Positions 1 to 20,000 of a stretch of 20,000 nt of DNA are shown piece after piece (position 1 is the first letter of the stretch; the number at the start of each line of letters is the position of its first letter). This DNA comes from Psammoneis japonica. Lineage: Eukaryota. The stretch is taken from positions 55,083 through 75,082 of the forward strand of contig QPGO01000281.1 in NCBI GenBank assembly GCA_008632985.1, in the 5' to 3' direction. The translations under genes and the position numbers were made by a program. The notes below the pieces were generated by a model, which searched no databases, was not told where the DNA came from, and was given only the letters and a program-made list of their open reading frames with translations.

Positions 1-1136
1 GTTCAGGATTGCCAAGCGAATTATCTTCCGGACGCAACGGCAAACTGGTAGGAGGTTCTTGTGGAGGCGAGCTTTGTCCTTGTTGGGTGCTTGGACTAAC
101 TGTTGCGGGAGACCCAGTTATTTGCGTTGGGCCCATGGTTGTCGGTGGGACCGTGGATGGGTTTGTCAAAGGTGGGGTTGGAATTGCCGTTGGTCGTTGG
201 CACAGTGGGTGAGTTTGTCGTTGGTTCGGTAGGAGATGTGGTTGTCGGTGGGACCGTGGTTGGATTGATCGGCTTTTCCGTGGTAAGAGGGGGGTCCGTT
301 GCGGCGGCACAACCTTCGGAACACCAACGATCTCTTGTGCCCTCCGGGTCTTCATTGAAGAGCCTCTGAAACACACCACTTGTACCGCCGTTGCACTCGA
401 TGGAACTGGGAAAATCACAACCCGACCCCGTGATCGCACATATTTGCCTTTTCCCGTTCATTGAATTCATCTCGTCAAAGACAAGGTCATTATAGGGTCC
501 ACAAAAATCCTCGCAGACTATTTTGCTGCAGCGGCCTGGCAGATCTGGGCGATTTGCGTCGCACCGGTAACTCTCGCTCTCACAAGACCGCCTAAATGGG
601 GTCGTCGTTATCGGCGTCAGAGTGGGTCGAGGAGTCAATGCAGGCGGCCGTGTCGACGTCGGAGTGGGTCGAGGAGTCGATTCAGGCGGTCGTGTCACCG
701 GTGGCAGGCCGGTACCGGCACCACACGCAACACAGACCGTTGAACGGACTTCTTCTGGGTGATTATTCATAGTTTCTTGGAACTGCGTCATGGTGGGACA
801 ATTGACGTCTTCATGCCATCCACAATTTCGGATGGCGCACTTGTATACGAATCCTAAATACATGCCGTAGAACTGTGCAGTGTACTCGAGCGTTTTTCCT
901 TGTCCACAGAAATCTGTGCAGATGTAGCACTCGGACATTGCAAAAGCCTTAGGACAGTCCAATCCGGAACGAAATTCGCAATAGTCGCTAACCGACAATT
1001 TGCGACTCGTTGTGGTGTTGGTGCGATTTCTCGCCCCGCGTACGAGTAGTGTTTCTTGGCCATTGGTGTTGGAAGGCCATCCAAACACAACTTGCTTTAG
1101 GATAAAGGGAAGCAGAGTTACCGAAAGCTTGAGCAT
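1..1136 (-). CDS. Putative secreted Cys-rich protein with two related Cys domains and Pro/Thr-rich (mucin-like) linkers; frameshift near 194; the probable true frame runs off the window start
   Basis: ORF 96..1136 begins with a signal-like MLKLSVTLLPFILKQVVFG, then an RKL motif and two domains sharing C.DFCG / CAI / FQ...N..PE..R...C. After about 194 the PT-rich text (PTAIPTPPLTNPSTVPPTTMGP...) continues stop-free in another frame to position 1. Confidence 0.75.
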
Positions 1137-1390
1137 GTGCGCACCTTATTCTTGCTGCCGCGAAAAACTGCGAGGTTCACTTTTTATGACCAGTGCTTTT
1201 AAGCCTGGATGTGGGCTCACTGGGGTGTTGCATTCGTCGATCGGTGCATTTTGTGAGTCCTTCAAAAACACACACGAAAAAAACTCGCGATTTCATTCCT
1301 GGATGTGTCACGAATTCGAATGTCGATTCTCGTTTTTGTTTTTGGTCTCAACCATCGTTTGCGCCATGCGTATCGTGGATTCTTCTCAAA

Positions 1391-2046
1391 TCTTTGACAA
1401 GGAACGAAGGATGAACTAAGCAAAACGGAGAACGCCATTGTCACTTCATGCAGCCGCTGCTTTGTGTTTCTTTTTTCTTTTTTGTCAAAAAAGTGCAAGA
1501 CGAAAGACGAGTCACGATTGCATGACGTCCCCAACGATGACGAGTTTCTACTTACAATTGCTCCTACGTAACAGCTCCATACAAAACATTGTATCCAAGA
1601 CTCTAAGTGTTCTTTGGTGGCGGTTTCTGTCTCAATCACTGTGTGCACTTTTGGGTCCTTTCTCTCCACTGGAGCAGCAGCAGAGAGAGAGAGCAGAGAG
1701 AGCAGCAGCCTCCAGAGCTGCTGCTCTGGAGCCACCGCAGGCAGCATGGAAGCACAAGAAGAAAGCGTTCATCATGGGCTCTTGTTGAGTCTTTGACAAG
1801 CAACAAAGGACAAGCAAAACAGAGAACACCGTTGTCACTTCATGCCACCACTGCTTTGTGTTTTTTTGTAAAAAAATGCAAGTGAAGCAACAAAGATGAG
1901 CCCTCAATTGTGCCACGTGCGCCTGACATGCTGAGTTTCTGCTGCTTGCACTCCTGCTCCTGCGTGCTGACAGCTCCGTGCAAAAATTTGGTGCCAAGAC
2001 TCCAAGCGAACATTGGCGGCATTTTCTGCCTCAACTGCTGTGCATT
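1391..2046 (+). repeat. Degenerate direct repeat of about 260 bp (copy 1 about 1391-1650, copy 2 about 1790-2046) straddling the edge of the TpA-depleted domain
   Basis: Shared blocks in the same order: tctttgacaag, aagcaaaac.gagaac.cc.ttgtcacttcatgc, ctgctttgtgttt, gagtttct, acagctcc, ccaagactc.aag. Confidence 0.85.
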
Positions 2047-5000
2047 GCAAACATCTTGGTCTGAGATTGTGCAATCAAAGGAGAAGAAAATGGAGAGGGG
2101 GTGGCCACCACAGGGGCATGATGGAGTCACAAACTGAGATGAAGAAAATGAAGAAGAGCACATGGCCAGCACAAGTCAATGGCAGCAGCCTTGGCCCCAA
2201 GCCCCCACACATGTGCCTTGTCCTTGCAATGGCGCCATGAGCACTCAAGAGTTGCAGAACACTCTCCAGCCAGGCAGCTGCCTCCCAGACCCTCCACCCA
2301 GCAGTGTCAGCTGATTGCAAAGTTTTCTCTGCAGCAATCAGACCACAGTCAGCCGATTGCATCCCTGCAGAGCAGCAATTGGTTGGCTGCATTTGTGCAG
2401 CAATTGTGTGGTCTGATGAACTGACTGCTGCCATTTCACTGATTTCAGCTGGAAAAAGAGCTTGAATTTTGATTGCGGTCGATTGCAACAGTCGATTGTG
2501 AATGTGACCTCCTGGGCTCTTTCCCAACAATCAGGTCATTGCAGTCAAGTTTGCAGCAGTGATTGCAGTCAAAGTGAGGCTGAATGCAATTGATCCTGGC
2601 AACTGGTTGACACTGCCCTCCAGGCCATGTCAACTTTTGTCTGAACAACCTTGCGGAACAGCGCAACAAGCAAAATGGGCAAGCAACCCATGGGGGCTCA
2701 TTGCAGCCAGAAGCAACACACTCTTCATTTTCAGATTTAACATTTGTGCCTTTGAAATCAATCCAGAGCAGATGAAGCAAGCTGGAAGCTCAATTTGTCA
2801 AATTTTGTCATCCTGCAGGATGGTGGCAACAATGTGATTTTGTCAACAACATTGTTTGGCTGCATTTTTTGTCATGCACCAAGAATTTTGCAGACAAACT
2901 TTGTTCTGCACTTTCACTCCAACAATCCAACTCTCTCCAAATTGACAATGTGAAAGTGGAGCCATTGCAATCACTTCAAAAATGTCCTCTCAAAAGATCC
3001 CTTGGATCCAAGTCATTGCTCTGTGCAGCAAAATCCAGGACTCATGTTCTTTGCTTTGTTGAAGACTGCTGAAACAGCAGCTCCCTCTCCATCTTGCTCT
3101 CAGTCAACATGAAACCAACCTCCTGCACCAGCAATGTCTCACACCACCACAAATCGAGACAACTGATCTTCACACCACCACACCAGCTTTGGCTCAGTGG
3201 GTGCCAAAAATCTGGCAAATGGTGGGATGATGCATCATCTGCATGCAACATGGCATCACAAATGGGTGCAACGGCATGCTTGCACAAAACTCATCTGGAT
3301 TCTGTTCTCTGATGGTCTGTTTGTGAACCCAAAAAAAAGTGTGACAAACCTGCTGCAGCAATGGGGCTGGACAAAACAATGATTGTTTGGATGCCTCATC
3401 TGCAGCGTCAATGTCATCATTGGCTCCAGTGGGCTTTTGACAAGTTCTCCATGTTGTCACCACCATGATGGTCTGTGCACTCAGTTGGAGCATGCCTGCC
3501 ATGCCATTTCGAAGTTGCTTGAGGCCTGGGTCTCACAGCTGCATCAACCTCAGAGTCAACACACCTTGCACTTTGTTTTCCTCCTCTTTGGAGCACACTG
3601 AGCAAAATCCTCTTGCAGGAGGCCCTGTTGTCTGTGCTCAGGAGCTGCACATGCATCCCCTCAAATCGTCCTCAAGCAAGAACATGGAGGAAGTGCCAGC
3701 ACACTGTGTTGTGCCATTTGGCATCATCAGCAGACCCACCAGGCCCACACATGACAGCTCAGCACACAACAAAAGTGACAGTGCCGCCATTGTTGTGTCA
3801 GCTGCAACTTTGGATTTTTCAAGAGCTGCTGCAAAGCCAGCCTTGAAAGTGCTGAGGCCACTCTTCACATTTTGTCCATCAAAACAGCACATTGTGGAAA
3901 CTGACCAGCTGCCTTTTTCCCAAGTCAGAGGAGCTCATTGGCTGCAACACAACAAAGAAAGCTGACAATCTCTCCTCCACTTTCATGCTGCCTCCTGCTC
4001 CAATGTTGGAAAACAGCTGAAAACCACTCACAGTGTGTTTGGGTTCAATGAGCTTGGGAATTTTTGTTGGCCATGGCACATGCTGTGTGTTTTGCAGACA
4101 GAGCAAAGCATCTGTGAGAACTTGTCAAAAGTTGCAATTTTGACAGCAAGACAAAACAACCAAGGTGGGTCAAGGCAGCAGCTGTCTTGTTCAAGCTGCT
4201 GCGGTGCTGTGTGGCAGCAGTCTAAATGACATGCTCTGCCTTCAAAACACATTTCTCACTTCTCCAGCTGCCTCAGAGGCAACAAAGCTGAAAGCATCTC
4301 TCAAAGAGAAAAACATGAGCTCTTTGTTGTGTCACCCATGTGCCAAAATCTGGCAGAAATGGACAACCACAGGTGGCCTCCACACTTCAACTTTTTAGCT
4401 CATTTTGGCTCAGTCAATGGTTTCACAGTCTGCTGCTGCACACCATCATCATGACTCAACATCTGTCATCTGAGCAGCACAATCTGTGCTCCAATTGCTT
4501 GTGCTGCTTTCTTGGCACATCAGCGAAGACACAAAAAACCTTTTTCTTGTTTTCTCCTTTTCATTTTTGCTGCACTCACTTTTAGATGGCAGCCCTTTTT
4601 GTCCCCAAGATTTGGTGCTCCACATGTTTTCCTGTCACATTTTTTGTTGAAGCAGATCAAGTGCTGGCACTTGTTGCAGGAATCAGCTGCTCCCCATTTT
4701 CTCAGTCATTTTGTGCTTTTTTGCATGAGTGGCATGTTCTTTTGCTTTCCAAAGGGCTGGCCCAAGAACCTTTCTTGCTTGCCTTGTAACTGCCCTGACA
4801 GCAGCTCTTTTTCAAGGCTTTTGACTGCTCTTGGAACAACACCGCAGCAGATTGCAGCCAGACATGGAAAAATCAGGGGCAACGTGTTCTCTGATTCTCA
4901 CAGAACAATCTCTACAGTGTCAGCCAGATGGCTTGTGTGGAAACCATGCTGATGCCACCAAGGATCAAAATGTGGGGTGAGCAACAAATCTCAGTTCTCC

Positions 5001-5340
5001 TGTGACACACAGAACAAGTGCGTGAAGGCATCAGAAGCCACACACACACCAGAAAAGGCTTGGACTTCAACAACATTGGAACACTTCTCACCTGGCAGCT
5101 CTGCAGCATGGAGGGACTCTGCACATGTCTGTTTGTGAGGGCCATCTGGTGGAGCAGCTGTGCACTGGCTTTGGGAGAAAAGCACCATGGCTGCAACCAC
5201 CAATGCCTCCAGACAGTTGATGCCCTGGCTTCTGCATGAGCCACAGCAACACTTGCCACATGACTGAAAAACATTGCAGCTTTGTGTTGCACTTGATGGC
5301 CAACCTTGAACACACTTTTTCCTGGCAGCAAACTTGTGGA
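1610..5340. other. Hypermutated domain A: TpA- and CpG-depleted, TpG/CpA-enriched degenerate DNA of unidentified origin
   Basis: Hand count finds about 7 TA dinucleotides (1869, 2738, 4223, 4396, 4583, 4787, 4913) in about 3.7 kb. ORFs in all six frames essentially lack Tyr and are rich in Cys/His/Gln. Confidence 0.9.
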
Positions 5341-6354
5341 CCGTTGTGTAGACCAGTGCTACGATGCCTCTACGACGATTGAAGTTCAAGACACACGTGG
5401 CGTAGTCAAGAATGACAAGGACGACGACAATTTCTGCGTCGTGTTCGACCCATATATAGCATTACGGTAAGTGCCGAGATATTTACTCTGCAGTTTTCGT
5501 CGATATCCAACGTCAGGCGTGGCCAACACGGTGGGTTTCATTCTTTCTTCTTGTTTTTGACAGGCATCCATTGAATTCGGTTGTTTCACTGCTTCTGACG
5601 GCATTCATACACCGTACCGTGCGACCAACTCGTCCCCCCGGATAGCGGAAGCTGTGCTACTTCAAGTCCTAACTGCATTAGCTCGTTGACGCTTTCAGTC
5701 CAGGAAATTTCTTGCGAAGAAAGCGAAAGCCAAAACAACCAAGTCAACGAAACATGCAATGACTTCGCTGACGTGGAACTCGAGGGTAAACTTATCCAGG
5801 TCACATGTGGTGATTCGCAGGCCGAACTTGAAAGAAGAACGGTCTATCGTAACCAGCCGTTCAAAGTTGGAACTGGAGATGACTGTCTACCAGACGACAT
5901 CCAGTGTAAAATCTACGACTATAATGATCAGAGCCAGATAGTCCAGATGGTCACTTTTGATACGTCATGCGCGGAACCGTTGAATGTCAAGAACACTTTT
6001 GGAATGTTGCAGATTGAGGGTTGTGCTGATCAGTGGGAAAACTTCAATCGGCAATGTCGCCCCTTTGTTGATACCACTTATTCAGTGTCAAACGTTGGTG
6101 ATGAGGTTTTCACTCTCACTGAAGCTTATGATTCGATTTATGACTTTGATTTTCTACATGGGGAACCACAAACTGTGCCACCGAGTGAGCCCAAACCTTT
6201 AGTATTAGCTGTCCACCAGGACGCTTTCGATTTGTGTGTTCAGGGCATTGCTTGCTACAACAGCACTTCGACTGTCAAGGCTGAATCTAATGAAAATGGA
6301 GCCCCGTGTGAAGCTATGGCGATGGAAAGTTTTTGTTATCCAGGGATTTTTTGA
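5339..6354 (+). pseudogene. 5'-damaged, frameshifted gene for a Cys-rich repeat-domain extracellular protein (diatom-type, QMVTFDTSCAEPL...FG.L.I.G motif; possibly DUF7467-like)
   Basis: Exon piece 5339-5466 (DRCVDQCYDASTTIEVQDTRG...NFCV) resembles the ORF C-terminus (DLCVQGIACYNSTSTVKAES...SFCY). After the intron come ASIEFGCFTASDGI and PCDQLVPPDSGSC..., which joins ORF 5686..6354. Frame breaks at about 5455 and about 5610. The domain name is from recall only. Confidence 0.65.
5467..5563 (+). other. GT-AG intron (97 bp)
   Basis: Donor GTAAGT at 5467; pyrimidine tract ttcattctttcttcttgtttttga ending in CAG at 5561-5563. Confidence 0.75.
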
Positions 6355-6875
6355 TTGGCGGCGACCAAAGAATCTTCCCCTGTGTGTTGTGTTTCGAGAT
6401 GCGCTGTAACTTTACCGTTTTGTACCGTGGCACTTCTCCAAGACTTCTCGTTTTGCGTTGAGATAGGCATATACCGTAGCTCTTGTTTGTCACTTTGCAT
6501 CGAGAAAGATAGGAATACATGCCGTGGCTCTTGTCTTACTGTACCGTACTCGTATCATAGGGCCCGGAAGCTAGCTCTAGCTACGGCCGTGATCGTTTAT
6601 GAGAGTCGCACCACCGCTAGAGTAGAGGGCCGTACTGCTCTAGTAGAGACACGTCTCTACTCGAACTCTATGCACTTCACAACCAACAAACTTTCGGTGC
6701 CAATGACAAAAATACAAAATAAAGGCTGCTCGAAGAACTTAATTCATGTTATTAAAGTTTCGACAAACGCTTAAGATAATTTCGCTTCACAATCACAAAT
6801 GGCACACAAAAAACAAACTCCATACTACCAGGGAGCTGCACCACACTACACACACAAAGAACCAAATGATTAGCC

Positions 6876-9800
6876 TCAAACACTCTTGTCGCCAGTGCTT
6901 GCTGCTTCATCGTCGGCTGGTTTCTTTACGGAATCTCCCTTGAGTTCCCCACCCGCTTCGGCATGTCGCAGAGCGGACAAACTTCTCGCAATCGCCCAAT
7001 CGGCAGCATCACTCGCGCCAGCTTCCTCGGTTGATCCTTCTGCCTTGCTCTGTTCTGCAATCTGCATCCAAACTTCCGCTTGAGCCAGTGCATCCTGTTC
7101 CTCCTTTAATGCCTTGGCCTTTTTGGCCTTGGACGATCCAGAACTGGCATCGTCGCTCTTGCCGGCTGAAGTATCCGATTTCTTCCTTCCAAACCAGCTT
7201 CTTCGTTTGCTTCCGCCACTACCGCTGCCACTACCAGTACCCGTGCTCTTGCCATCATCCCGGCTCGTATCGGGACTACTGCTAGACATGCTCTTGCCTT
7301 CTCTGTCTGTCTTGGAAAAGTTACCCGCCGCAGCCATGACTCCCGTCCAGTCACCCTTGTCAATCAACGCGTCAAGCTCTGCCGCACGCTCGGCATTGAC
7401 ACCGGTCCTTTTCTTTCGGCTGCTCGCGTCGGTATCCAACGAGGCTGAAAAGGACCGCGACGACGCTGTCGTGACACTCGCGTCACTCATCATGGCAGCT
7501 GCTTCTCCGACAGCCTCCCAGTCACCAGCATCAATTGCCTCCTCGAGCGCTGTTCTCCTGCGCTTTCGCTCCGTCTCGGACGTGTCGCCTTCGTCCTCTG
7601 ACTTGAGAGCCGGTGCAGCCTTTGCTTTATCGTCCTTATCATCCTTTTTGCTCTTGGCCGCTACAGCGGCTCCGGCCGCACCAAGCGCTGCTCCACCAAC
7701 TGCCGCACCAGCAGCAATACCAGCCACGGCTCCTCCCGACAATCCTCCGTCACCACCGCCTCCAGCCGCCGCTGCAGCGGCGGCAGCATCACCCTGCCTC
7801 GCTTTACGAACCTCATCGCGAGCCTGAATCTTGGCACTCTTGCGGTCCGCCGCCCTTGCACGCTGGGCAATGCTGCGTTCCTGCATGGTCCTCAAGGTCT
7901 CCACCAATTCCTCTTCGCGTCCACGGAATTGCAACATCATTTCATCCACATTGTCAATCTCGTCCGGCACGACACGACGCACCAGGGCCTCGACTTCGTT
8001 ACGAATCTCGGCACGCTTTGCCTGCTTGCTCGGACTGTCACTGAGACTGGTCGTTTCGCCCTGCGAGTATCCCGAGGACGTACCATAACTGCCACTTCCC
8101 GTACCCGTATACGAACCCGTATAATACTCGGACGATCCCGCCGTTCCACTGCGCGTCGCCGATCCCGACTGCGACCCGGAATTCTTACTTCCGGTTTCCG
8201 ATTTGGACGTGGACGACTCTCCTTCCGACTTTTCAAACCTCGCTGCCGCCAAAACGACACCCTCCCAATCTCCGGCATCCACCAAATGATCCAATTCGGC
8301 CGCACGCGCCGCGTCAATGGACGAGACGGAGGATCCACCCTGGAAGCGGACGTGCCCGATTTGCGGCTCTTGGAGGAATGGGATTGCGAATCCGACGCGG
8401 CCGCCAAGAGGCCGCCGTGGCACCCACCGCGGCCCAATCACCGGAATCAATGGCACTGTCCAAATCGGCACGCGTCACCGTGGGAAGGTCCGGCACATCG
8501 CCGCTTTCAATCTTATTGGCGGATCGTGCACTCGCCACTCCCATGGCGGCCAAACTCGCTCCACGCTGTGCCTCGTCCTGTTCGGAATTGAGACTGGAGA
8601 CACCGGCCGACGAGGACCATCCACTCGAACCAGCATTCGAGGAGGAATCGTCTGATTTCTTTGCTGCCGACGCGACCGCCAATTCGGTATCAGTATCACG
8701 TTTGTTTCCCTTGCCATACGTCGCCGTTCCGGCACCCAACACCGCCGCCTTGTCTTCTGTCGAGGGCATGTACGGACGATTATCGTCCTTGTCTTGAGCA
8801 CGTTTACGACGAAACACAAAGTACCCCACACCGGCAATGGTAACCACCGAGGCAGCAATGACGATTCCGGCAATGCCTCCACCGGAAATGCCACTGTCGG
8901 GTGCTGGTGCCGGAGTCGGTGCTTCGGCCGGAGACAAGATGCGCACCACCGAATTGGGATTGACCACCGTCAGGGCAGTTTGCAAATCGCCATTGACAAA
9001 GATCGCTTCCGTCAAGGCTTGTTCGTAGGCATCCCGCACCGCTGCCGGATCGTCCTCGTCGGTAATCTCGAGAATCACCACGGGATTGACTTCGCGGCAT
9101 TCGTCCGTATCGGGAATGCCATCCGGACAAGCTGTGTATTGAAAGGAGTGAAAATAGAGTGAGTATCGTAATATGCAAGTGGCATTCACAATACACAACG
9201 CAATCCAACTGATGTAATAACACTGTACACATTTCTTTTTTACTTACGAATCACAATGGTTCCTGTAATGGACGTGGGTGTTCGTACCATGACGGCCAAT
9301 CGTCTACTACGCAATTGTCGTCGTCGCATTCGAAATTCCGAAAGAGCAACATTGGTGGCCACAATATTCATGGCGGCAATCAAATCGTCTGTATAAGTAG
9401 ATGGATCGACTTCTTGTACCAATCCATCTTGTACCGCAATCGGATACGGTACCATGACGGTTTCAAAATCCGGTGTCGTTTCCAACGATGGTGCTGCCGT
9501 CAAGGTGGGACCGCTCGTGGTGGGTGCCATGGTGGGTGTTCCCGGGAGTAAACTGGGAGCCGACGAGGGCATGATTGTGGGTGCGGCACTGGGAGCATTG
9601 CTGGAAATGACACGATTGATGGACGTGTCCGTAAACAAACACACCGAAAAGAGATAGGGTGTCACTTGTCCTTCATCGACACCGGTAATGTTGATGCGCG
9701 CATTGTCTCCGATACAACAATCATCCGCGGCTCCCGGCACATTGGTACAGAGACACGCGAGGGCATTGAAATTGAGTTGCAAAATCACAGGCAATTCACT

Positions 9801-10043
9801 GAAGTCTGTAACATTTTCCAGAAATCCATCGGGACCCGAGAGTTGCACAAACGTGACGTATTCTTGACGATCAATCAAATCATCCTTGGGGCAACAGTCC
9901 GAGCCGCTCAGAGCACCGTAACACGTGTCGGTATCCACAAACGGACCGACACTGACATTTTGGGCACCAGTAAAACAATTCAGGAGCAAGAGAGATAGCA
10001 TAAACCTGAGTATCATGGTTGTTGTTTTTGTTGTTGCCGTCAT
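6876..10043 (-). CDS. Type I membrane protein, two exons (10043-9248, 9131-6876): signal peptide, Cys-rich domain with an EF-hand-like motif, PS/T linker, RxL motif, TM helix, and a long Ser/Gly-rich cytosolic tail with four GDW repeats; two apparent 1-bp deletions at about 8410 and about 8339
   Basis: Joins ORFs 9240..10043, 8314..9198, 7937..8437 and 6876..8471. Splicing gives IVI-P-CPDGIP in frame. TM is GIAGIVIAASVVTIAGVGYFVF followed by RRKR. Also present: DDLIDRQEYVTF, RRRQLRSRRL and a VPDEIDNVDEMMLQFRGREEEL motif. Confidence 0.85.
9132..9247 (-). other. GT-AG intron (116 bp, phase 1)
   Basis: Minus-strand donor GTAAGTA at 9247 and acceptor ...ctcctttcaatacacAG at 9132; removal fuses two ORFs in frame (C|CT = Pro). 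Confidence 0.85.
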
Positions 10044-11570
10044 GGTTGTGTTTCGTTCAAAACTACTTCAGATTCAAGAATCACTTTTCGTTATTTCAAC
10101 TCCTCCCCAGAACAATACGGTGTAGAAACCACGTAGATTCGTACCACACGTAAAAGGTACAGTACTACCACAACCGACGAAAATAATTAGTACTTTGGCC
10201 CGCTTGAGTGATCAACGATGAAACAATCTCGCTGTTGTCGTTGTTGTTTGCCTCGCCCACACACAAAAACACAAACAACACACGACTACCCGATTGCCGT
10301 TGGGTCAACTTTCACGTACTTGCCGGTCTTGGATTACTTGGCGCCCAATGTGGTGTTGTTGCAGTGCAGTATGGCGTGGTTTTTGTGCTGGCGGGTTGCT
10401 CCCGGTTTGCATCTCAGATCTTCATGTGAAGGTTGAATATTTGAATGTAGGTATACCATCGCTTATACATGGTATGATTAAAGAACGTTACTTGGCCATT
10501 GAGTGTATGTACAAGCGGATTATTGATAAGCATACAAATCTATATACATCATTACCAATGTTTTTGTCCAACAGTATCAATTTTGATTGGAATGAAATTT
10601 TCTTTCATTTTCCTGTCCGTTCAAGAATTGCAGTTACTCTAAGAAATGGAGATATTTTATTCAACGGAAAATTTTTGGCCAGGACTCAACATGTTATCTA
10701 CGGCCATGAGGACAAATAATTCAGTCACGCTTGACGTCATGCTCGCGCACGCACTTCAGGAGCATGCGGATGATTCGATGAAAATTTCGCACGATTGGCG
10801 CATTGGTGGCAACTGGGACGGCGCGCCGGGCTGTCTCACTGCTCCAGTCCCAGGAACAATCCATCCAGCTCATTTGGCTTTCATGCTGTCTGATGGTTGA
10901 TGATTGTGCCTTGGCTCTGTGTGTGTGGCAGTGGATGCAGAGAGAGGGCTGGGGTGCTGCAGTGCGAAGGAGGAGAAATGCAGCCCTCTGCCACCAACCC
11001 CCACTCTCTCTGCTGATTGCTCAAAGGGGGTGTTCATTTTTTGCCCCTCTCTCCACATCATTTTGCAGTTTGCACTTTCAAGCTGCTGGCCAAAGAAAAA
11101 GATGTTGAGCTTGCGCAGCACAAAAGAGTCAAAGTGTGCGCACATTTCTTGCTGTGACAAAGCCTGTCTTGGTGAGACAGTGCAGCGCAGCTGGGGTGGA
11201 AAAACCAGCAGCGCCGCATTTCCCAGCTGCAATGAGCGACAATCTGTGAGCAGCTTTGGAGGGGGAGAGCTGCAGCTTTACAAAAAAAAAGGCTGTTGAA
11301 AGAACTGCCAATCCTTCCTCAGGACACAAACAAAAGAAGCTGACAAAAGCAGTGTGCTGACTTCCTCCCTTCTTGCACTGAGCCCATGTTCTTTGTTGCT
11401 GAAAATTTTCAAGCTTGACATGTTGGAAGATTGCCGCTGTCTTTTGGACACTTCTCCAACAATTTTTGCACATTGTTTTGGTGACACAGGTGGCGCCAAT
11501 CTTGTTGTTGCTCAGCTCACAATCAGCCCAAGCAAATGCTGTCCTTCTGACATCACATTGCATTTTCGTT

Positions 11571-11701
11571 GGCTGATTGAGGAAAACAAGCTTGGGAACA
11601 AAGGGGTTCTTGCATCATGCTTGTGCATTTCCACAGGCTGATTGAGGAAAACAAGCTTGGGAACAAAGGAGCTGCATCGTGCTTGTCATGTGATTTCCAC
11701 A
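11571..11701 (+). repeat. Tandem duplication of a unit of about 65 bp
   Basis: ggctgattgaggaaaacaagcttgggaacaaagg is identical at 11571 and 11636; both units end in atttccaca. Confidence 0.9.
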
Positions 11702-14221
11702 CGTGGCTCTTCTGAAATGTGAAGCAGGGTCTTGTTTTCTTGTTGTGTTTTGAAACAAAGTTGTTTTGTTCATTGTCACCTCTCATCTCACTTCACTTTG
11801 TTTGGCTCAGAGCAAAAACAAGTTCTTAAAGTGAGCTCCCAAAATGGCACACCTTCACTTGGAGCTCCAAAACTTTGCAAAAGGTTTTTTCATTGGCAAG
11901 CTTGAGCATGCAGAAAAGAAAAATGAAGCTCTGCACAGTTTTGCAGTGAGAGATGTCACATGGAAAATAAAAAAAATGAAAAAAACAAAGGAAGTTGTTT
12001 CATTTGATGAAGTCTGCAAGCCTTTGAACCAAGGAAAGAACAAAAATTCAGAAAGACAGATCTGTTGACTCCACTCATCAACTTCTTGATCATGACAGCC
12101 CACAAATTTGACCATTGCCACACCTGCAGTGGATTCTTGCTTGCATCAGTGCCAAAAGAGAAACCACAAAAAAAAAGCGAACAATTTGGCCCAGCTTTGC
12201 AAACAAAAACCCCGCAGACAACGCACCTCTGCCACTGCATGATCTTTTGAAATGAAAAGAGCAACAGCTCCATTTTGCCAGTTGGCCACCATTGGTCAAA
12301 GCCACTGCACATGGGAACAAGATTTGTGGGGTGTGGGGTGTGGCCATTGCACACAAGCCAACTCCAGGCACAAACTTCAGCCCTGGGTGGGTTTCCAGCA
12401 GCATGACCCTGCTCTTGCACAAGTGCCCACAGCAAGGGCTTGCTCAAATTCAAGTGTGCAAAAGCACCTGCAGCAGGCAGCTGTGCACCCTGCACAGAAA
12501 GCCACATGTTTTTCACCATGCAAAACTTGCCCAACAACCTGTTCACAAGCCCAGCAGCAGATGTGAAAAATGTTCAAACCATGGCAAGCTTGTTCATCCA
12601 GGGCTGTGAACAAGCAATGATGCCTGCAACCCTTGTTTTTTTGGCCCAAACTTGCACAAATGCACAGCCACCATCTCAGAGCACCTGTGCAAATTTGAGC
12701 TCATCAAAGCCAAACAGGAGGGATGACACACAGGCAGGCATGACAAACTCTGTGCATTGTGAGCTCTGCATTTTGCATGCCAGGCAGTGAGTGCATTTTT
12801 CTTCAACACTGCTCCAGACAACTGGTGGAACCTTGCAGCATTGGACTGTGACATTGAGCCTTTTTTCATGTGCTGCATGTTGCATGATGCACACACATTT
12901 CTGTGCACCTTTGATGGAATTTTGTGTCATTTTGCAGATTTGCAAAAATGGTGCCAAGCATTGAGGTGTGCAGTTGTGCCACAAACTTGGTCATTTTTTC
13001 AGATGTCGAAGACAAGCACATCCATCAAAAACAAATTCTTGTGCCACAGAGCTGGCGTGTGGAGCTGCACAAGCCAGTGTCACATGGAGCCCCATCGCCT
13101 GGGGCTGGAGCCTGTTGCAAGGACCTCTTTTGCAGCACAGCCATGCCCCCCCCCTTGTTCTTTTTTTAACATCTGCACATGCCAGCACACTCTCAAGATG
13201 TTGGCAAGGGTGCTGACACACAAGAAACATCAAAAGTTGTTGAGTGGATGACTGGACAGTTGCGCTGCAATCTCTGCAAAATTTGTCCACAGTCATGCAG
13301 AAATGTGTGCCCCAGATGTGTGGTGCATGATTGCAGACATGCACATTGCAGCCCAGCAGCACAAGGCCCTGCATGGTGCTTGCCAAGATCTGCCATTGTG
13401 CCACACATCTTGTTGACTTGTTTGGGCATGATGCAAGCAGAGCTCTTTCCTCTGTCTGATGCTCCTTTGATGAGCACCGGGGCTCTCACCACCCACTTCA
13501 ATCTCTGGAGACTCGCATCAGAGGGGGGGTGCAATGTGGTGGTTGTTGCTTTCATTGACACTTGTTTTGATGCTGAATTTTAGTTGTCTTGTTTTTTAAA
13601 ACATGACATTCAAACCTCAATGGTCTTTGCACAATGCAAGGCATTTCTCTGCATTTCTTGAGGAATTTTGTCATCTGTTTGCTTTGACCACACATCCCAA
13701 AGTGACTTGCACATCCAAAACTTTTGTGATTTGCTGCTTGAGTTGTGACAATGAATCCTCTTTGCTTTTGACATTTCACATTTCAACTCAGTTTTTGCTT
13801 TTCACACCCCATTCGTGCATCACCATTGTGTGTGCTGGTGCAGTGTCTGCACCCCAGTCATCTCCACGTGTGCACTCCCTCTTTGCATCTCACTCATTCC
13901 CAGAACTCTGTGCACATTTCTCCACCACATTTTCAGTGCTTTTTCTGCATGAGCCATTTTCTGCACATTTCACAACAGCACACTCTCTCCCCTTGGTTTG
14001 GTTTTGCCACAGGATTCCCGAAAATTCCCCGGGATCACCACCTTTTGCCATGATTTTCCACTGGAAGCTTGATTTCTTGGGGATTCACCACGAATTGCAC
14101 TTTGTCACATGCACACTGCACACATGAATAAAAAAATTGGGAATTCCCTGTGCTTCCCTCTCACGCATTTCTGCACCCACGTGCCGGGATGCAGCAAGCA
14201 AAATCCCAGTGGAGTGGTCTG

Positions 14222-14636
14222 TGTTGGGTCAGTGTGTGGAGTCGTTGCTGGATGGTGTGGGAGGAATGGCTGCAGACGTGCATTTGGGATGTGACATCCA
14301 ATTGTGTGGGAATGAAAATGCGGAAACAAGTGCATCAACAAGACAAGGGTGAGAGTGTTGCGGCACAGGCTGCGACACTGCATCAGCATTTGTTCGCTTT
14401 GTCAGAGCCACAGTCTGCTGTTGAGCATCTGAATGCAGTGAAATTGTCATTGCGTGGGTGTGAAACAAAACGGCATGCACAGTCGTTTGTTGCTGTGCAG
14501 AACCACATGGGTGTCAGCCACAGAAACAGCACTGGGTTCTGCATGTGCGCATTGCGCAACGTCAGATTTTGCAACAAATGCAAACCAACCATGAGAATTG
14601 CTGTGACTGAAATGGTGTCACACTTGCGAATCAACA
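14222..14636 (+). repeat. Candidate 5' LTR of copia element 1
   Basis: Bounded by TGTTG (14222) and CAACA (ending 14636), the canonical copia LTR termini, about 220 bp upstream of the gag ATG. No second LTR in the window to confirm. Confidence 0.45.
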
Positions 14637-16866
14637 GTTTTCGATGTGTGTGACAGGTGTTGATCTGAGCAGTGTGGGGTGGCATGCCCAGAGCATGTGC
14701 TCATTCAGACAAACTGGCATGGGGTGGCCTCTCATTGCTGGTTGACTGCATGGACCTGTTGCCACAGCGCTCGCTGAGTGTTCAGTCTCCTGTCCACACC
14801 CATTGTGAGAGTCTCACAGTTGCTGCAGCTTGATTGTCTTTGTGACACAGGAGACATGGCAGCAGCAGCAGCTCAAGCTTTGGCAGCATCAGTGCTGGCA
14901 GCGGACATTGACAATGTTCTGCAGACATGTGGCATCACTGGCATCAATGCAAGAGCTTGCTTGGTGTGCTGTGAAGGATTTGCAACACTGGAGAACATTG
15001 CAGTCATGGAAGGTGACTCAGATGTGGAAGACATGGCAAGCAGGGTTGGCCGTTGCACTGGCCAGGATGGGAGAGTGGCACTTGGTGCTGTCCAAATTAA
15101 GAATCTGCAAGCTTTGGTTTGGTGGCTTCATGATCATCAGAAGCACAACCTTGTGCTGGAGGATGCAGCACTGTTTAATCAGGCAGCACTGATTGATGCT
15201 CACCAGAAGAAGTGCATGGAAAAAGATGTGGTTGAATCAGAAGTGTTGGTCAGCTCATTGCCGGCATTCAAGTTGGAGAATTTTGACATGGTGGAGGATG
15301 CATTTCTGAACCTCTTGTCACAGAAGGTTGGGGCACTGAAAGAACCATTGCGTCATCATGTGATGAGACTGGCAGCAGTGCCAGCCACATTTGTTGACAC
15401 AGCCAAGGAGCACATGTGTCAATTGAGTTTGAATGGGATGGCATTCGATCAGGACAACGGTGCTGTGTGTCATCTGTTGAAAGCTCACCTGGTGAACATG
15501 GAAGTGGTGGCATGGATTGAAGCCTGCAACAGTGCAGAGAACAGGAGAGATGCCTTCTGGGCATGGGCAAACCATTGCAACAGACAGGGAGAGCTTGGCA
15601 AGTGCACTCAGTTGGCGTTGGCAATCATCAAGAGTCATTGCACTGCAAGAACAAGCATCACTTGTCATTTGAATGGCACACAGCAAAACTCACCAGTGCA
15701 TTTGCAACCGTGGCAAAGAGTGAGGACCGGTGCAAGACAGACAGGCAGAAAGTTGAGATTCTCCAAAGATGGGTTGAGACCGACAATGTTTGGCTGCAGG
15801 CTTGCATTCACATGATCAGTCCACAGCATCCTCGTGACTTTCCTGGCATGTGTTCAGAGGCTGAGCATGATTCAAAGTGCAAGATGTTGGACATGTCCCA
15901 TGAGAGAGGCCCAGGCAGGGGCTTCACTCGAGGTGGCGGTCGAGGCCCCCGAGGAAGTGGTGGTTGAGGTCATGGGCCTGGAGGCCACGGCAGGGGATGA
16001 TTTGGTGGCAGAGGTGCAAATGCAATGATTGATGGTGCGGGCATGTTGGACCCCACTTGTGCCTTTTCCCCAGATGAGTGGCAGCAACCAAGGTTCAATG
16101 GTGGCCAAGTGCATGTTGCACAAGCCCGTGAGCAGATGGCCAGATGTGGTGGCAGTCCTGGACATGGACGTGGTGGCCCCGGTGGACAACAGGCAGCTGG
16201 TGCACACCAGAGTCCAGACAAATCAATGCAACAACAACAGGAACAGCTGCTGGCTGATGCGGCAAGTGCAGGTTGTGGACGTGGACACAAGATTGAGAAA
16301 GGGGGTGGTCATGGAGCAGTTTTTGGTCATGGAGCCCACATGACCACCTGACAGTGTGGGGGGTGACAGCCGTTTCAGCTTTGCTTGCATGCCACACAAA
16401 TGTGATTGCATTGTCTCTGCTGTTGTTGCTTGTGCTGTCTAAACCCCACCCAGACAACACCACAAAGAGTTTCTGAAGGATCAAGGCAACCTCCAAAAGA
16501 TTGGCACAATCGGCGAATGCAGCGTCAAACCCGGGCAATGTGGTTCCTGGTCATGTGTCCCACAATGAATGTCACACCCATGCAGACACGTGTTGTGCAG
16601 GAGCAAACTGGAGATTGATGGAGACCACTGATGAAATGTGTGAAGCAAGTCCATTCCTTGAATCGTGTGATCTGGTTGGGCAGATTCCAGTTGCGCGATG
16701 TTGTGCTGTTTGGACAGATCCAGCTGTGATGGATGAGTGCTTGTTGGTTGGTGACCAGATGCTGTGGTTTGGACAGCAAATGGAGCATTCCCTTGTCAAC
16801 CCCAGTTGGTTGTGGGCATGCAACATCTCAGTCAATGACAACCCTTGCGATCCCCAAGACAGCTTT
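14222..16866 (+). mobile_element. Degenerate Ty1/copia LTR retrotransposon 1 (diatom CoDi-like): gag, Gly/Arg-rich region and aspartic protease, truncated at about 16866
   Basis: gag-like from ATG 14856 (QIKNLQALVWW, FLNLLSQKVGALKEPLR, AFDQDNGAV.HLLK, RQKVEIL) with a frameshift near 15633. Protease-like ECHTHADTCCAGANW...SPFL...IPVA...WT...QMLWFG..MEHSLVNP...V.DNP at about 16560-16860. Confidence 0.85.
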
Positions 16867-19077
16867 GACAGACATCCGAGATGGGGAGTGCACTCCCTTG
16901 TGTCGGACAGACTGGCACAGACAGCATGGAGAGATCCGATGATCTCTCCTTTGCTCACTTTCTTTCTCATCTAGTGCACGATTGTCATCTGTCCTAGACA
17001 TCAGTTAGATTGTCCCAACACCGCCAGTCTGCAAGGTTGTGAGCAGCAGTGTGCTGTTCCTCTTCCTCTGTGCTCCTCCGCTGCAACGCCTGTTGCGCCA
17101 ATTGGCAATTTTTTCTTCGTTGAAATCGTCATCATTGTCACAGCTGTTTTTTCACCTCTCGATTTGTGATCAGACAACCACCGTAGAACACATGCCAGAG
17201 ATCTGCACAGAAATTTGATTTTTTTCCACGCAACCATGATGGTGAACAAAAATCAAAACGCCGTCGATTTGACCAAGATCAAGATGGCTGCGGGTTGAAT
17301 TCAGCCCACACAATTGCTCACCCCATGCACACCGTTTCCTGAATGCTCTTTGTTCCGACAAGACACATGCTCCTGAAGATCTTCTGGATGGATTCACCCC
17401 TCAAGGCCTCAAGAGCAATGCTGTTGCTGTCCTCCGTCATGAGATCGTTCAGAATCTCATCATCCCTCAAGCTGCACTGACTGAAGATCTTGCATGAATC
17501 GGACCAATCATTGAAAAGGCCCCTCTCTTTGTGGCCATCTCTCAAGACTCCCTGGTTCATCTGAACCTCAGCACTCTTCAGAAGGCCATGATCAAAGCGA
17601 TCTCAGAGAACGACGACACCATGAGGGCACACGCTGAGACTCCACGCTTCCACTTCAGCCCTGGATTTTGACATTGTGATTGCTGGGATGACATTTCAGA
17701 TGATCCGCATCCAGACCCACCACCTCCTTCAAGTTCTGCATCCCTGCCAGTTCCTGCTGTGCAGGTCCTGCTCCTGAAGACTTTGAGCAAGCTGTGACAA
17801 ACGCATTGAAGACATCCACTCCTCCTGTGCCATCTCATGCACCGTCTCCCATGACTGATGCTGCTGCGGCTTCTTCCTTGACTGCTGCTGGTGCTCTGCA
17901 CACCTTCAATCCAAAAGGACTTCCAAAGGATGCACCAGCCCGCCACCAAAAAAAGGACGCTGAGAAAGCAGCACTGGGGAAATCCCTGGCACCCCACAAG
18001 TCTGGAGACCTTTGTTGCGAGGATGGCACTGAACGTCCAATCCTTGCTGATGGTTCTCTCTTTGTCCATCGCATTGATTGGGATGCAAAGTCTTTCCTTC
18101 ATGATCCTCTCACTTGTGACAATGTCTCCCCTCAAGGAATCCGTGCATGGCACACTGCTGTGACCCAACAGGCCTCCGCTTGTGGCATGTGCATGCACCC
18201 CCTGTGGTGTTTTGTCAAGGACGGTGGAAACTGGGGCTTCACTTGTGGCAATGATCCCACCAATGATCCTCCACTCCGGATGACAGTGCCCCTTGACAGA
18301 ATGAAGTTGACCATCTTCCAGCACATTCAGAAAGTTGGAATCTTTCTGGCAGACTCTAAGTGCCCTGACATTGTTCGTCAATGCTGTGGAGACAGATGTG
18401 CTGCCATCAAGATGACCCTTTTCAACATTTTGCCGATTTGGACAAAGCGTCCTCATGAGTTGATCAAGAGCCACCCCCAGCAATCGCTGCTTGTGCAATG
18501 CTCACAGGCACATCAAGGGCGTCCCAAAGTTCCGACATGCCAATCTGGTCCTTGACATTTGTCCTGTGGGTGTCCAAGCCAAGCAAGTCAAAACTCCTGC
18601 TGGACCCAATGTGACTCAAAAGGCAACTCAGCCATGCCAAGGCCTTGCTGTTGATTTTGCCTTTGCTGGCCAATGCTCCAAGAACAAAGATGGCAAGTCT
18701 GATTGCCTTGGACACAATGGCAAAACGTGTTGGATCACTGTTTGTGACCACAAAACACACATGCTCCATGGGGTTGCAAGGGTTTCCAAAGCCAGTCCTC
18801 TCAAGTGGCTTTGCCAATTCTTGGATCAACATTTGCCGAATTGTCATGATGAACATGCATTTGTGGACCAAGGTGGGGAATTGTGCAAGAGTCCCAAAGT
18901 TGGTGACCTCTTTGAACAAGAATCCCAGTGTGACACATGTCCCTCTGGCACCGGTGCATCCAACCAATGTGGCCCTGTTGAACGCTCACATTTGACTGTC
19001 AAGAACGCGATTGGTGCAATTTCAATTGGTGCCAACCTCCCAATCAGGTTCTGGCCCCATGCTTTTTACCATTGCCT
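16866..19077 (+). mobile_element. Degenerate Ty1/copia element 2 (different lineage): gag-like region fused by internal deletion to pre-integrase and integrase core
   Basis: gag-like IRAW...HPLWCF..GFTCGND (ORF 17794..18555). Integrase core QGLAVDF...DH.T...SKASPL.WL..FL...VDQGGEL...GPVERSH...GANLP.RFWP.AF (ORF 18491..19249). The left boundary is approximate. Confidence 0.85.
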
Positions 19078-20000
19078 GATTTCTGATGCACAAGCACGAT
19101 CCATTGGCGCACACTGGGAAAATCCAAAACCACAGGTGGGGTCCTTTGGAGGCCATTTCATGGCACAGGTGACAGTCGCAGCAAAAGGATTTGACGAAGA
19201 AGCAAACATGGGCACAGTTGCATCCTGTGTTTCAGCCAGAAAAGGCTGACCATTTTCCACACGTTGCAAATGGGTGGCATTTGGAGGAAGTTGATCCAAA
19301 AATGGGTCATTCACACCCTCATCGTAGTGCACATGCTTTGCCGTCTTGACTTTGTCAGTCTCCGGATCCCTCCACAGGACATTTTTCAGGGTGTTCGGAA
19401 GACAGCCAAGGAAGACACCCTTCTTCGAATTGGTCCGGAAAGTGGCAGAACGAGCAGTGGAACGTTCAGACCACACTCGGCATCCAAAAGTCTTGAGAGC
19501 AGCAAAATCTTTGACCTTTCCAGTTGCAAGGGTGATGGGCGAGGCATCTTGATCTTTCGCAGGAGCAGCATTCTTGATGTGGAGGCAATGGCAAAAAGCA
19601 TGGGGCCAGAATCTGATCGGGAGGTTGGCGCCAATTAAAATTGCACAAATCGCGTTCTTGACAGTTGAATGTGAGCGTTCAACAGGGCCACATTGGTTGG
19701 ATGTGCCGCGGCCAGAGGGGCATGTGTCACACTGGGATTCTTGTTCAAAGAGGTCACCAACTTTGGGACTCTTGCACAATTCCCCACCTTGGTCCACCAA
19801 CGCATGTTTGTCACGACAATTTGGCGAATGTTGATCCAAGAATTGGCAAAGCCACTTGAGAGGACTGGCTTTGGAAACCCTTGCAACCCCATGGAGCATG
19901 TGTGTTTTGTGGTCACAAACAGTGATCCAACACGTTTTGCCGTTGTGTCCAAGGCAATCAGACTTGCCATCTTTGTTCTTGGAGCGTTGGCCAGCAAAGG
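19078..20000 (-). mobile_element. Inverted second copy of the element 2 integrase, extending further C-terminally
   Basis: ORF 19066..19899 carries DQGGEL, GPVER, KTFGCRVW, KGVFLG and HV..DEG copia integrase motifs; 19583-20000 is the reverse complement of 18660-19077. Confidence 0.9.

Follow-up and report, generated by a model that had tools for sequence, protein, structure and literature searches.

What removes nearly every TpA step from one block of DNA and spares the block beside it, and what decides which of the few remaining steps survive? A 20,000-nucleotide stretch of the Psammoneis japonica assembly GCA_008632985.1 (contig QPGO01000281.1, positions 55,083 to 75,082 of the forward strand; hereafter the window, with positions counted from its first letter) raises both questions, as it is a mosaic of two TA-poor domains, denoted A and B, amid ordinary DNA. 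The reading that we favour, and consider likely, is that dead repeats in these domains have undergone saturating TpA to TpG/CpA hypermutation, with the survivors set by the 3' base on each strand and the mutator reading 5'-TAY-3' (Y, pyrimidine; R, purine). Dead repeat DNA would here have been driven nearly to completion by transitions of the kind reported in 2026 in the alga Bigelowiella natans (Mettrop et al., bioRxiv 10.64898/2026.01.13.699255), with a parallel loss of CpG to TpG/CpA. The TAs now present would be mainly true survivors, the base 3' of the A being decisive and each strand being read separately, with TAT and TAC removed most rapidly, TAG several-fold more slowly and TAA most slowly of all. 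YTAR sites, which present TAR on both strands, would then be safe, and RTAY sites, which present TAY on both, would be lost fastest. Such a pattern may stem from a single enzyme that reads one strand at a time, works on both strands of the duplex and prefers certain sequences; the likeliest candidate would be a DNA adenine deaminase (A to I, read as G) aimed at silenced DNA.

Depleted domains and direction of change

The window contains 265 TAs, just 25 of which fall within domain A (1605..5348; seven sites, at 1869, 2738, 4223, 4396, 4583, 4787 and 4913) and domain B (10718..20000, reaching the window end; 18 sites, from 11279 to 19636). Together the domains carry 0-5 TA per kb, as against ~60-78 expected from base composition. 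Observed/expected ratios per kb are 0.00-0.07 for TA, 0.05-0.50 for CG and 1.4-2.15 for CA/TG. Pooled rho values for depleted versus normal DNA are 0.03 versus 0.56 for TA, 0.26 versus 1.11 for CG and 1.81 versus 1.17 for CA/TG; AA/TT is not depleted (1.23 versus 1.19) and GA/TC is unchanged (0.96 versus 1.07). Among the ten strand-symmetric dinucleotide classes, TA and CG are the only ones to go down and CA/TG is the only one to go up, joined in the window by GC, with the GC content remaining near constant (0.49 depleted versus 0.51 normal). The domain borders are sharp and lie at 1605, at ~5340 (5340-5349, the right end of A) and at 10718. Two undepleted stretches provide internal controls, namely the interval 5349..10717, which holds a protist-type gene on the minus strand, and the flank 1..1604.

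Both domains consist of repeat DNA, comprising a copia-type remnant and sequence that has many diverged relatives in the data set. The remnant is an integrase open reading frame (ORF) at 19069..19998 on the minus strand, 310 aa long and open at the window end, that matches the Pfam family SH3_retrovirus (E 1.6e-8); ten full-length copia relatives share 38-51% identity with it. The translation of the remnant is nearly tyrosine-free (Y 0.3%, C 5.8%, H 4.2%). In a Pfam scan of 24 + 89 stop-free frames from the depleted domains, the copia SH3 domain was the sole match, and the stop-free frames of domain A matched no Pfam family.

The direction of change can be read from duplicated copies. A tandem duplication of ~395 bases has one copy at 1366..1650 (plus strand) that is unmutated and keeps its TAs and CGs, and a second at 1763..2060 (plus strand) inside domain A, in which TA is replaced by TG or CA and CG by CA/TG. 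From copy 1 to copy 2 we find CTAC to CTGC twice, TTAC to TTGC, ATAC to GTGC and CTAA to CCAA. The border of TA loss at 1605 falls between the tandem copies, and CG density declines gradually over 1621-2017. That one tandem copy is mutated argues against recognition of duplications in the manner of fungal repeat-induced point mutation (RIP) and for targeting by domain; we infer that domains are chosen by chromatin state or by spread from an element.

An inverted repeat supplies a second comparison. Its arms, at 18660..19077 (plus strand) and 19583..20000 (minus strand, within the copia-type ORF), are 418 nt long, 95% alike and differ at 22 places. Five sites derive from TA: at three of them one arm carries TG and its partner CA, and at the remaining two a TA persists in a single arm. 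Another 8 to 9 differences derive from CG, with CG set against TG/CA. These differences at TA and CG sites indicate that both losses went on after the inverted duplication, and on either strand. At codon 121 of the copia ORF, one arm has TTA and the other TCA; because this residue is Leu in 10/10 homologues, the TA at 19636 (TTAA) is ancestral and hence a true survivor. The tandem pair, the repeat arms and the rho values all point to A:T to G:C change at TpA that yields TpG or CpA, as in B. natans. Confinement to blocks beside normal DNA, also a B. natans trait, is seen in the sharp borders and in the copia remnant and diverged contigs that lie on the domains.

Context of the surviving TpA sites

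The 25 surviving TpA sites (1869..19637) comprise 16 YTAR (TTAA 7, TTAG 4, CTAA 3, CTAG 2), 6 RTAR, 3 YTAY and 0 RTAY, which reproduces exactly the hand count of the initial annotation, including its first (1869) and last (19636) positions. That count had been judged against an even 25% per class, a null under which we obtain P = 4e-5 for YTAR. The proper control is local normal DNA, where 238 TAs divide into 26 YTAR, 58 RTAR, 70 YTAY and 84 RTAY; the TAs at the borders, at 1604 and 10717, were excluded from both the depleted and the normal set. Compared with this control (16/25 versus 26/238), the YTAR excess has a Fisher P of 8e-9, and the context bias is therefore stronger than first stated. 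The excess is present in every sub-domain (4/7 in A, 4/6 in the left and 8/12 in the right part of B). Under a null in which TAs are newly made by random single transitions from CA/TG, 22.6% YTAR would be expected (P = 1e-5), as would 24.8% RTAY, against none seen (P = 8e-4).

We also looked for the same YTAR excess in unmutated DNA, which the initial annotation had named among the findings that would undo its claim, and found the opposite. YTAR is the rarest class in normal DNA, at 11% in the window, 14% in the undepleted remainder of a metagenome contig denoted L002 and 17.5% (4033/23081) in 69 other metagenome loci. RTAY, with 0 among the window survivors, is the most frequent class in all the normal sets that we examined. 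Survivor density relative to normal DNA is 0.62 for TTAA, 0.25 for CTAA/TTAG and 0.21 for CTAG, then falls to 0.06 for GTAA/TTAC, 0.04 for CTAC/GTAG and 0.03 for ATAA/TTAT, and is 0 for every RTAY word (ATAC/GTAT, ATAT and GTAC).

These densities are well described by a two-strand model in which survival equals exp(-(k[3' base, top strand] + k[3' base, bottom strand])), fitted as a Poisson model with four rates. For the window, the fitted k(A,G,C,T) = 0.27, 0.92, 2.58, 3.55, that is, T >= C >> G > A. Four rates improve greatly on a uniform k (chi2 53.1, P = 2e-11) and leave a residual deviance of 2.8 on 6 degrees of freedom (df), with all ten tetranucleotide classes fitted; a two-rate purine/pyrimidine version already takes most of the gain (chi2 48.2). 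With the 69 unrelated loci as the ancestral proxy, the rates become 0.82, 1.38, 2.35 and 3.84, in the same order and with a smaller contrast. The T-A-Y rule thus describes a preference, about 3- to 5-fold on each strand, and not an exclusion, as TTAA itself was lost in 3/4 arm copies of the young inverted repeat.

The bias recurs in a second sequence. L002, an unrelated metagenome contig of 9722 bases, is one of 70 metagenome loci retrieved in a search for relatives of the 532-aa protein encoded next to the domains in the window, and carries a homologue that is 46% identical. Its first 1500 bases, ~3.7 kb from that homologue, have rho values of 0.18 for TA, 0.20 for CG and 1.69 for CA/TG. The 22 TAs there comprise 14 YTAR, 4 YTAY, 3 RTAR and 1 RTAY, and YTAR (14/22) is again in excess over the rest of the contig (45/322; Fisher P = 5e-7). 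The fitted k(A,G,C,T) = 0, 0, 1.18, 2.14 follow the same order as in the window. No TA-poor stretch was found in the other 69/70 loci. A third source, P0126, is a 549-aa fragment of a copia polyprotein from another metagenome that contains 0.0% tyrosine. It has Cys or His at 6/8 columns where relatives have Tyr, and at two of these it differs from the window copy (C versus H and H versus C). Known from its protein alone, P0126 is probably a further TA-hypermutated element. In columns at which most unmutated homologues carry Tyr, the window copy shows Cys at 3, His at 2 and Arg at 1, and P0126 shows Cys at 4, His at 2 and Glu and Phe at 1 each, numbers too small to separate the models.

Chance, or an ancestral repeat composition with no context effect at all, is a very improbable source of these counts. 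It draws some room from the use of proxies for the ancestral repeat sequence; against it stand P values of 1e-5 to 1e-11 under four nulls, the repetition of the bias in the unrelated L002 and the absence from the window of RTAY, the class that dominates normal sets.

The products of mutation give a second, mixed line of evidence, with the window supporting the T-A-Y rule and L002 not. Taking the flanks as the approximate ancestral make-up, TG in the window rises, before correction, by +25.6 per kb for TGY and +14.4 for TGR; less half of the CG loss, these gains become +14.0 and -1.7 per kb. The T-A-Y rule predicts 14.8 and 1.3, and a process with no choice of strand predicts 10.4 and 5.6. Individual outcomes at readable YTAY/RTAR sites agree with the rule in 7 cases: three CTAC/TTAC to TGC, GTAA to GCA, ATAA to ACAA, TTAC to TTGC twice and one Tyr to Cys.

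Several observations weigh against the T-A-Y reading. In L002 the product test gives it no support (TGY +2.5 versus TGR +2.4 per kb), and the product asymmetry of the window is also obtainable from a YCG preference in CpG loss. Among the readable outcomes, 3 go against the rule, the off-rule changes being GTAA to TGA, ATAA to ATGA, TTAC to TCAC and one Tyr to His after a pyrimidine, and the 7 to 3 balance is not significant. The four-rate model fits L002 poorly (deviance 21.3 on 6 df). The ratio k(Y)/k(R) depends on the proxy chosen for the ancestral NTAN composition of the repeats, ~5 with the window flanks and ~3 with the 69 loci. The sample is small, with 25 + 22 sites, and TTAA is clearly mutable. 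In addition, A is in excess at +2 (42/94 strand views versus 25% in normal DNA) and, more weakly, at +3, such that TAY may stand in for a wider context, for example A-tracts. The target preference claimed in the initial annotation accordingly holds among the survivors of the window and L002 in graded, not absolute, form, with mixed results on the product side.

The excess of A at +2 and +3, and the many survivors at junctions of T-runs and A-runs, would also suit a process that takes any TA and leaves TTAA, CTAG, TTAG/CTAA and such junctions shielded by DNA shape or A-tracts, a bound protein or base modification. We regard shielding of this type as improbable, given that CTAG and CTAA/TTAG survive without A-tracts, that the +1 base alone fits the window and that TTAA was lost from most of the arm copies.

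About as improbable is that the present TAs were re-created, after a complete and context-blind loss of TA, by C to T change at 5'-CAR-3', for example through non-CG cytosine methylation. Such re-creation predicts no RTAY, as found (0/25 in the window; 1/22 in L002), and paralogue differences alone give no direction. The YTAR fractions it predicts, 41.7% for the window and 48.8% for L002, fall below those observed (16/25, P = 0.020; 14/21, P = 0.077). Moreover, one TTAA is ancestral by outgroup, a still-active mutator would remove new TAs again and, in the available text of the preprint, the hypermutable regions of B. natans gained almost no C to T (1 non-AT to GC among 211).

CpG loss and the nature of the mutator

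CpG to TpG/CpA change, as expected from decay of 5-methylcytosine (5mC), occurs within the same domains and is evident in the CG rho of 0.26 and the differences between the repeat arms. The surviving CGs (in 1605-5348 and 10830-20000) are themselves biased by context: GCGC is best kept, at a ratio of 0.59 to normal, ACGC/GCGT and ACGT survive at ~0.33, and YCGR and ACGA/TCGT are lowest at 0.12-0.23. When the rate is made to depend on the base 5' of the C, the fitted k(A,G,C,T) are 0.74, 0.38, 1.04 and 1.02 (chi2 22.5, P = 5e-5); in L002 the numbers are too small (P = 0.31). CG loss in B begins ~110 bases inside the border of TA loss, such that the two depletions share no common border, and at 14001-20000 it is less complete (CG observed/expected 0.24-0.50 versus 0.02-0.05 for TA). 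This offset and this incompleteness suggest that TA and CG loss are two processes that proceed at different speeds in the same silenced domain. At the left edge of B (10718-10827), 14 CGs occur in 110 bases with zero TA, and the CG-poor state starts after 10827. Decay of 5mC in silenced repeats is known to act on CpG, and the CG rho and the CG versus TG/CA differences between paralogues resemble it; it accounts for the CG half only, and CG loss is less complete than TA loss.

The closest parallel is B. natans. According to the accessible text of the preprint (10.64898/2026.01.13.699255), 230/231 new mutations in two viral inserts of its mutation-accumulation lines were A:T to G:C, all on TpA, arising de novo in culture at ~1e-7 to 1e-6 per site per generation. 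The same text describes 124 genomic clusters that are TpA-poor and CpA+TpG-rich, an enrichment of reverse transcriptase and DDE endonuclease domains among TpA-poor coding sequences, and an ADAT2-like protein (candidate Bn78255) as the proposed agent. The two cases share an exclusive TpA to TpG/CpA change, confinement to discrete foreign or mobile domains and low TpA with high CpA+TpG. They differ in that depletion here is near complete (rho 0.03 versus 0.45 for the insert of B. natans from a nucleocytoplasmic large DNA virus, NCLDV) and in that the target here is retrotransposon-type repeats. Most likely, then, the domains represent another instance, close to saturation, of the B. natans-type process, with retrotransposon-type repeats as its substrate. 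The words trinucleotide, flanking, context and CpG do not appear in the main text of the preprint, which contains neither a +1 rule nor CpG co-depletion; Figure 2B ("mutation motif") and the supplements lie outside this statement. Within that main text, as far as it is accessible, the +1 pyrimidine preference is a new property. A full-text literature search for other accounts of TpA hypermutation returned only this preprint.

Adenine deamination is only one fitting chemistry. In the duplex, the A of 5'-TAY-3' lies opposite the T of 5'-RTA-3', and the two are indistinguishable by sequence. A mutator acting on the thymine of 5'-RTA-3', for instance through base modification followed by mispairing or faulty repair (T to C), names the same base pair and fits all of the counts equally. 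It would also suit a pyrimidine-directed system in which TA and CG, both self-complementary YpR steps, are lost together, as they are in the window and in L002. We nevertheless think it unlikely, since we know of no thymine modification documented to give near-exclusive T to C change. The authors of the B. natans preprint likewise favour adenine deamination, in what the accessible text presents as a proposal.

Other known mutators match less well. Fungal RIP also produces saturating, dinucleotide-specific transitions in repeats, sharp domains and dead elements. RIP mutates both copies of a duplication, whereas one tandem copy (1366-2060) is mutated here, and its CpA to TpA change would raise TpA and lower CpA/TpG, the opposite of the sign observed. 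Polymerase eta causes A to G change in the WA motif, at both TA and AA. With AA/TT at 1.23 versus 1.19, this route is disfavoured, and the argument of the initial annotation against general WA mutagenesis stands.

Hyper-editing of double-stranded RNA by ADAR resembles the present pattern in its A to G change and its preference for a 5' U. The ADAR2 hot spot is 5'-UAG in the consulted part of the source (PMC10661471), whereas TAG is among the protected words here (low k(G)) and AA, a further context in which ADAR edits, is untouched, so that ADAR-type editing is disfavoured. Furthermore, an RNA route would not explain a sharp domain over non-coding repeats, nor the mutation of single-copy viral DNA in B. 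natans culture.

The TadA/ADAT2 deaminases share A to I chemistry and the reading of neighbouring bases on one strand, and one member also deaminates C, recalling the joint loss of TA and CG. That member, amphioxus BjADAT2, is described in the consulted part of its report (PMC10354150) as the sole natural ADAT shown to deaminate A in DNA; the DNA motifs assigned there to BjADAT2/3, 5'-TCG-3' and 5'-GAA-3', do not include TA. Our domains show no loss of TC/GA (rho 0.96 versus 1.07). Given the preference of BjADAT2 for GAA/TCG in that source, the present pattern would call for a relative whose pocket differs, a further point against a TAY-reading deaminase. Such an agent would be expected to come from a deaminase gene with the HxE-PCxxC motif and to act on TAY DNA. 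A literature search on the sequence preference of TadA (UACG; TA-preferring TadA-derived editors) retrieved no usable passage.

A bolder extension of the deaminase reading is that a single conserved DNA deaminase of the TadA/ADAT2 type, guided by chromatin, reads 5'-T-A-Y-3' on both strands and serves distant protists as a genome-defence mutator, an adenine counterpart of RIP, with a side activity on C explaining part of the YCG-biased CpG loss. The signature in the window, in L002 and in the tyrosine-free P0126, together with the C activity of amphioxus ADAT2 at TCG, lends it some colour; we consider it doubtful.

Repeat relatives, neighbouring genes and reach of the process

Contigs from runs of one sample, in which coverage depth does not equal copy number, were placed on the window. 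Run X1 contributed 2220 pieces, 353 of them at least 99% alike and 1867 below that, with up to 33 contigs over one place of the depleted domains. Their differences from the window are mostly transitions (1509 places versus 606 transversions); rows with another letter among the placed contigs (40/2127) are too few for context statistics. Contigs are most numerous over the part that includes 16972-17184, where four surviving TAs (CTAG, CTAG, TTAG and GTAG) occur in 212 bases; this cluster is possibly a younger, less exposed repeat. One X1 contig of 2155 bases spans 798-2952 with three differences and has CA at 2225-2226 where the window has TG (TCAC versus TTGC), the pair that would arise if a single TA at this locus had been converted to one product in one copy and to the other in the second. 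This hint comes from one contig only, and either allelic variation or a distinct lineage in the culture might explain it. A word search with purines and pyrimidines collapsed found no unmutated progenitors inside the window beyond the repeats already known, an Rfam search gave no match, and a scan of a viral contig set with the copia alignment found no relative.

The normal DNA between the domains carries ordinary genes. The ORF of the protist-type gene (6879-8474, minus strand) has 404 homologues at up to 52% identity, from protists and metagenomes, none of them named; the sole match in a transcriptome survey is 38% identical. A contig from run X2 joins 9131 to 9248 and skips 116 bases; read on the minus strand, the skipped segment is bounded by GT..AG, as at a splice junction. 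The gene as a whole (6879-10067, minus strand) would encode a protein that opens much like a signal peptide, continues with a Cys-rich domain, a Pro/Thr-rich linker and a hydrophobic span, and has a tail in which D-A-G-D-W-x-x-V motifs recur; it matches no Pfam family. Searching the PDB sequences with the 532-aa ORF returned one chance-level row (E 0.094), and a Protein Atlas search with two ORFs gave nothing usable. A further ORF at 5599-6351 (plus strand) matches Pfam DUF7467 (E 1.2e-11) and had no homologue in a word-indexed protein search. In L002, consecutive in-frame ORFs (3104-4174, 4175-5140 and 5141-6517) are parted by single stops, TAG and TGA, and these gaps are probably introns.

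As far as the accessible literature goes, the first account of TpA hypermutation in invading DNA dates from 2026 and concerns one alga, B. natans. The three-base rule (T-A-Y on either strand, TAT/TAC >> TAG > TAA) offers a concrete biochemical fingerprint of such a process, one that can be checked against the published de novo mutations, that gives a simple oligonucleotide assay for candidate deaminases and that argues against ADAR-like and polymerase-eta-like routes. The co-loss of CpG and the sparing of one tandem copy bear on how targets are chosen, by domain and not by duplication. Because the signature, bias included, is found both in the repeats of the window and in L002, with a probable third occurrence represented by protein only, our findings suggest a process that is not confined to a single species and that strikes transposons in addition to viral inserts.

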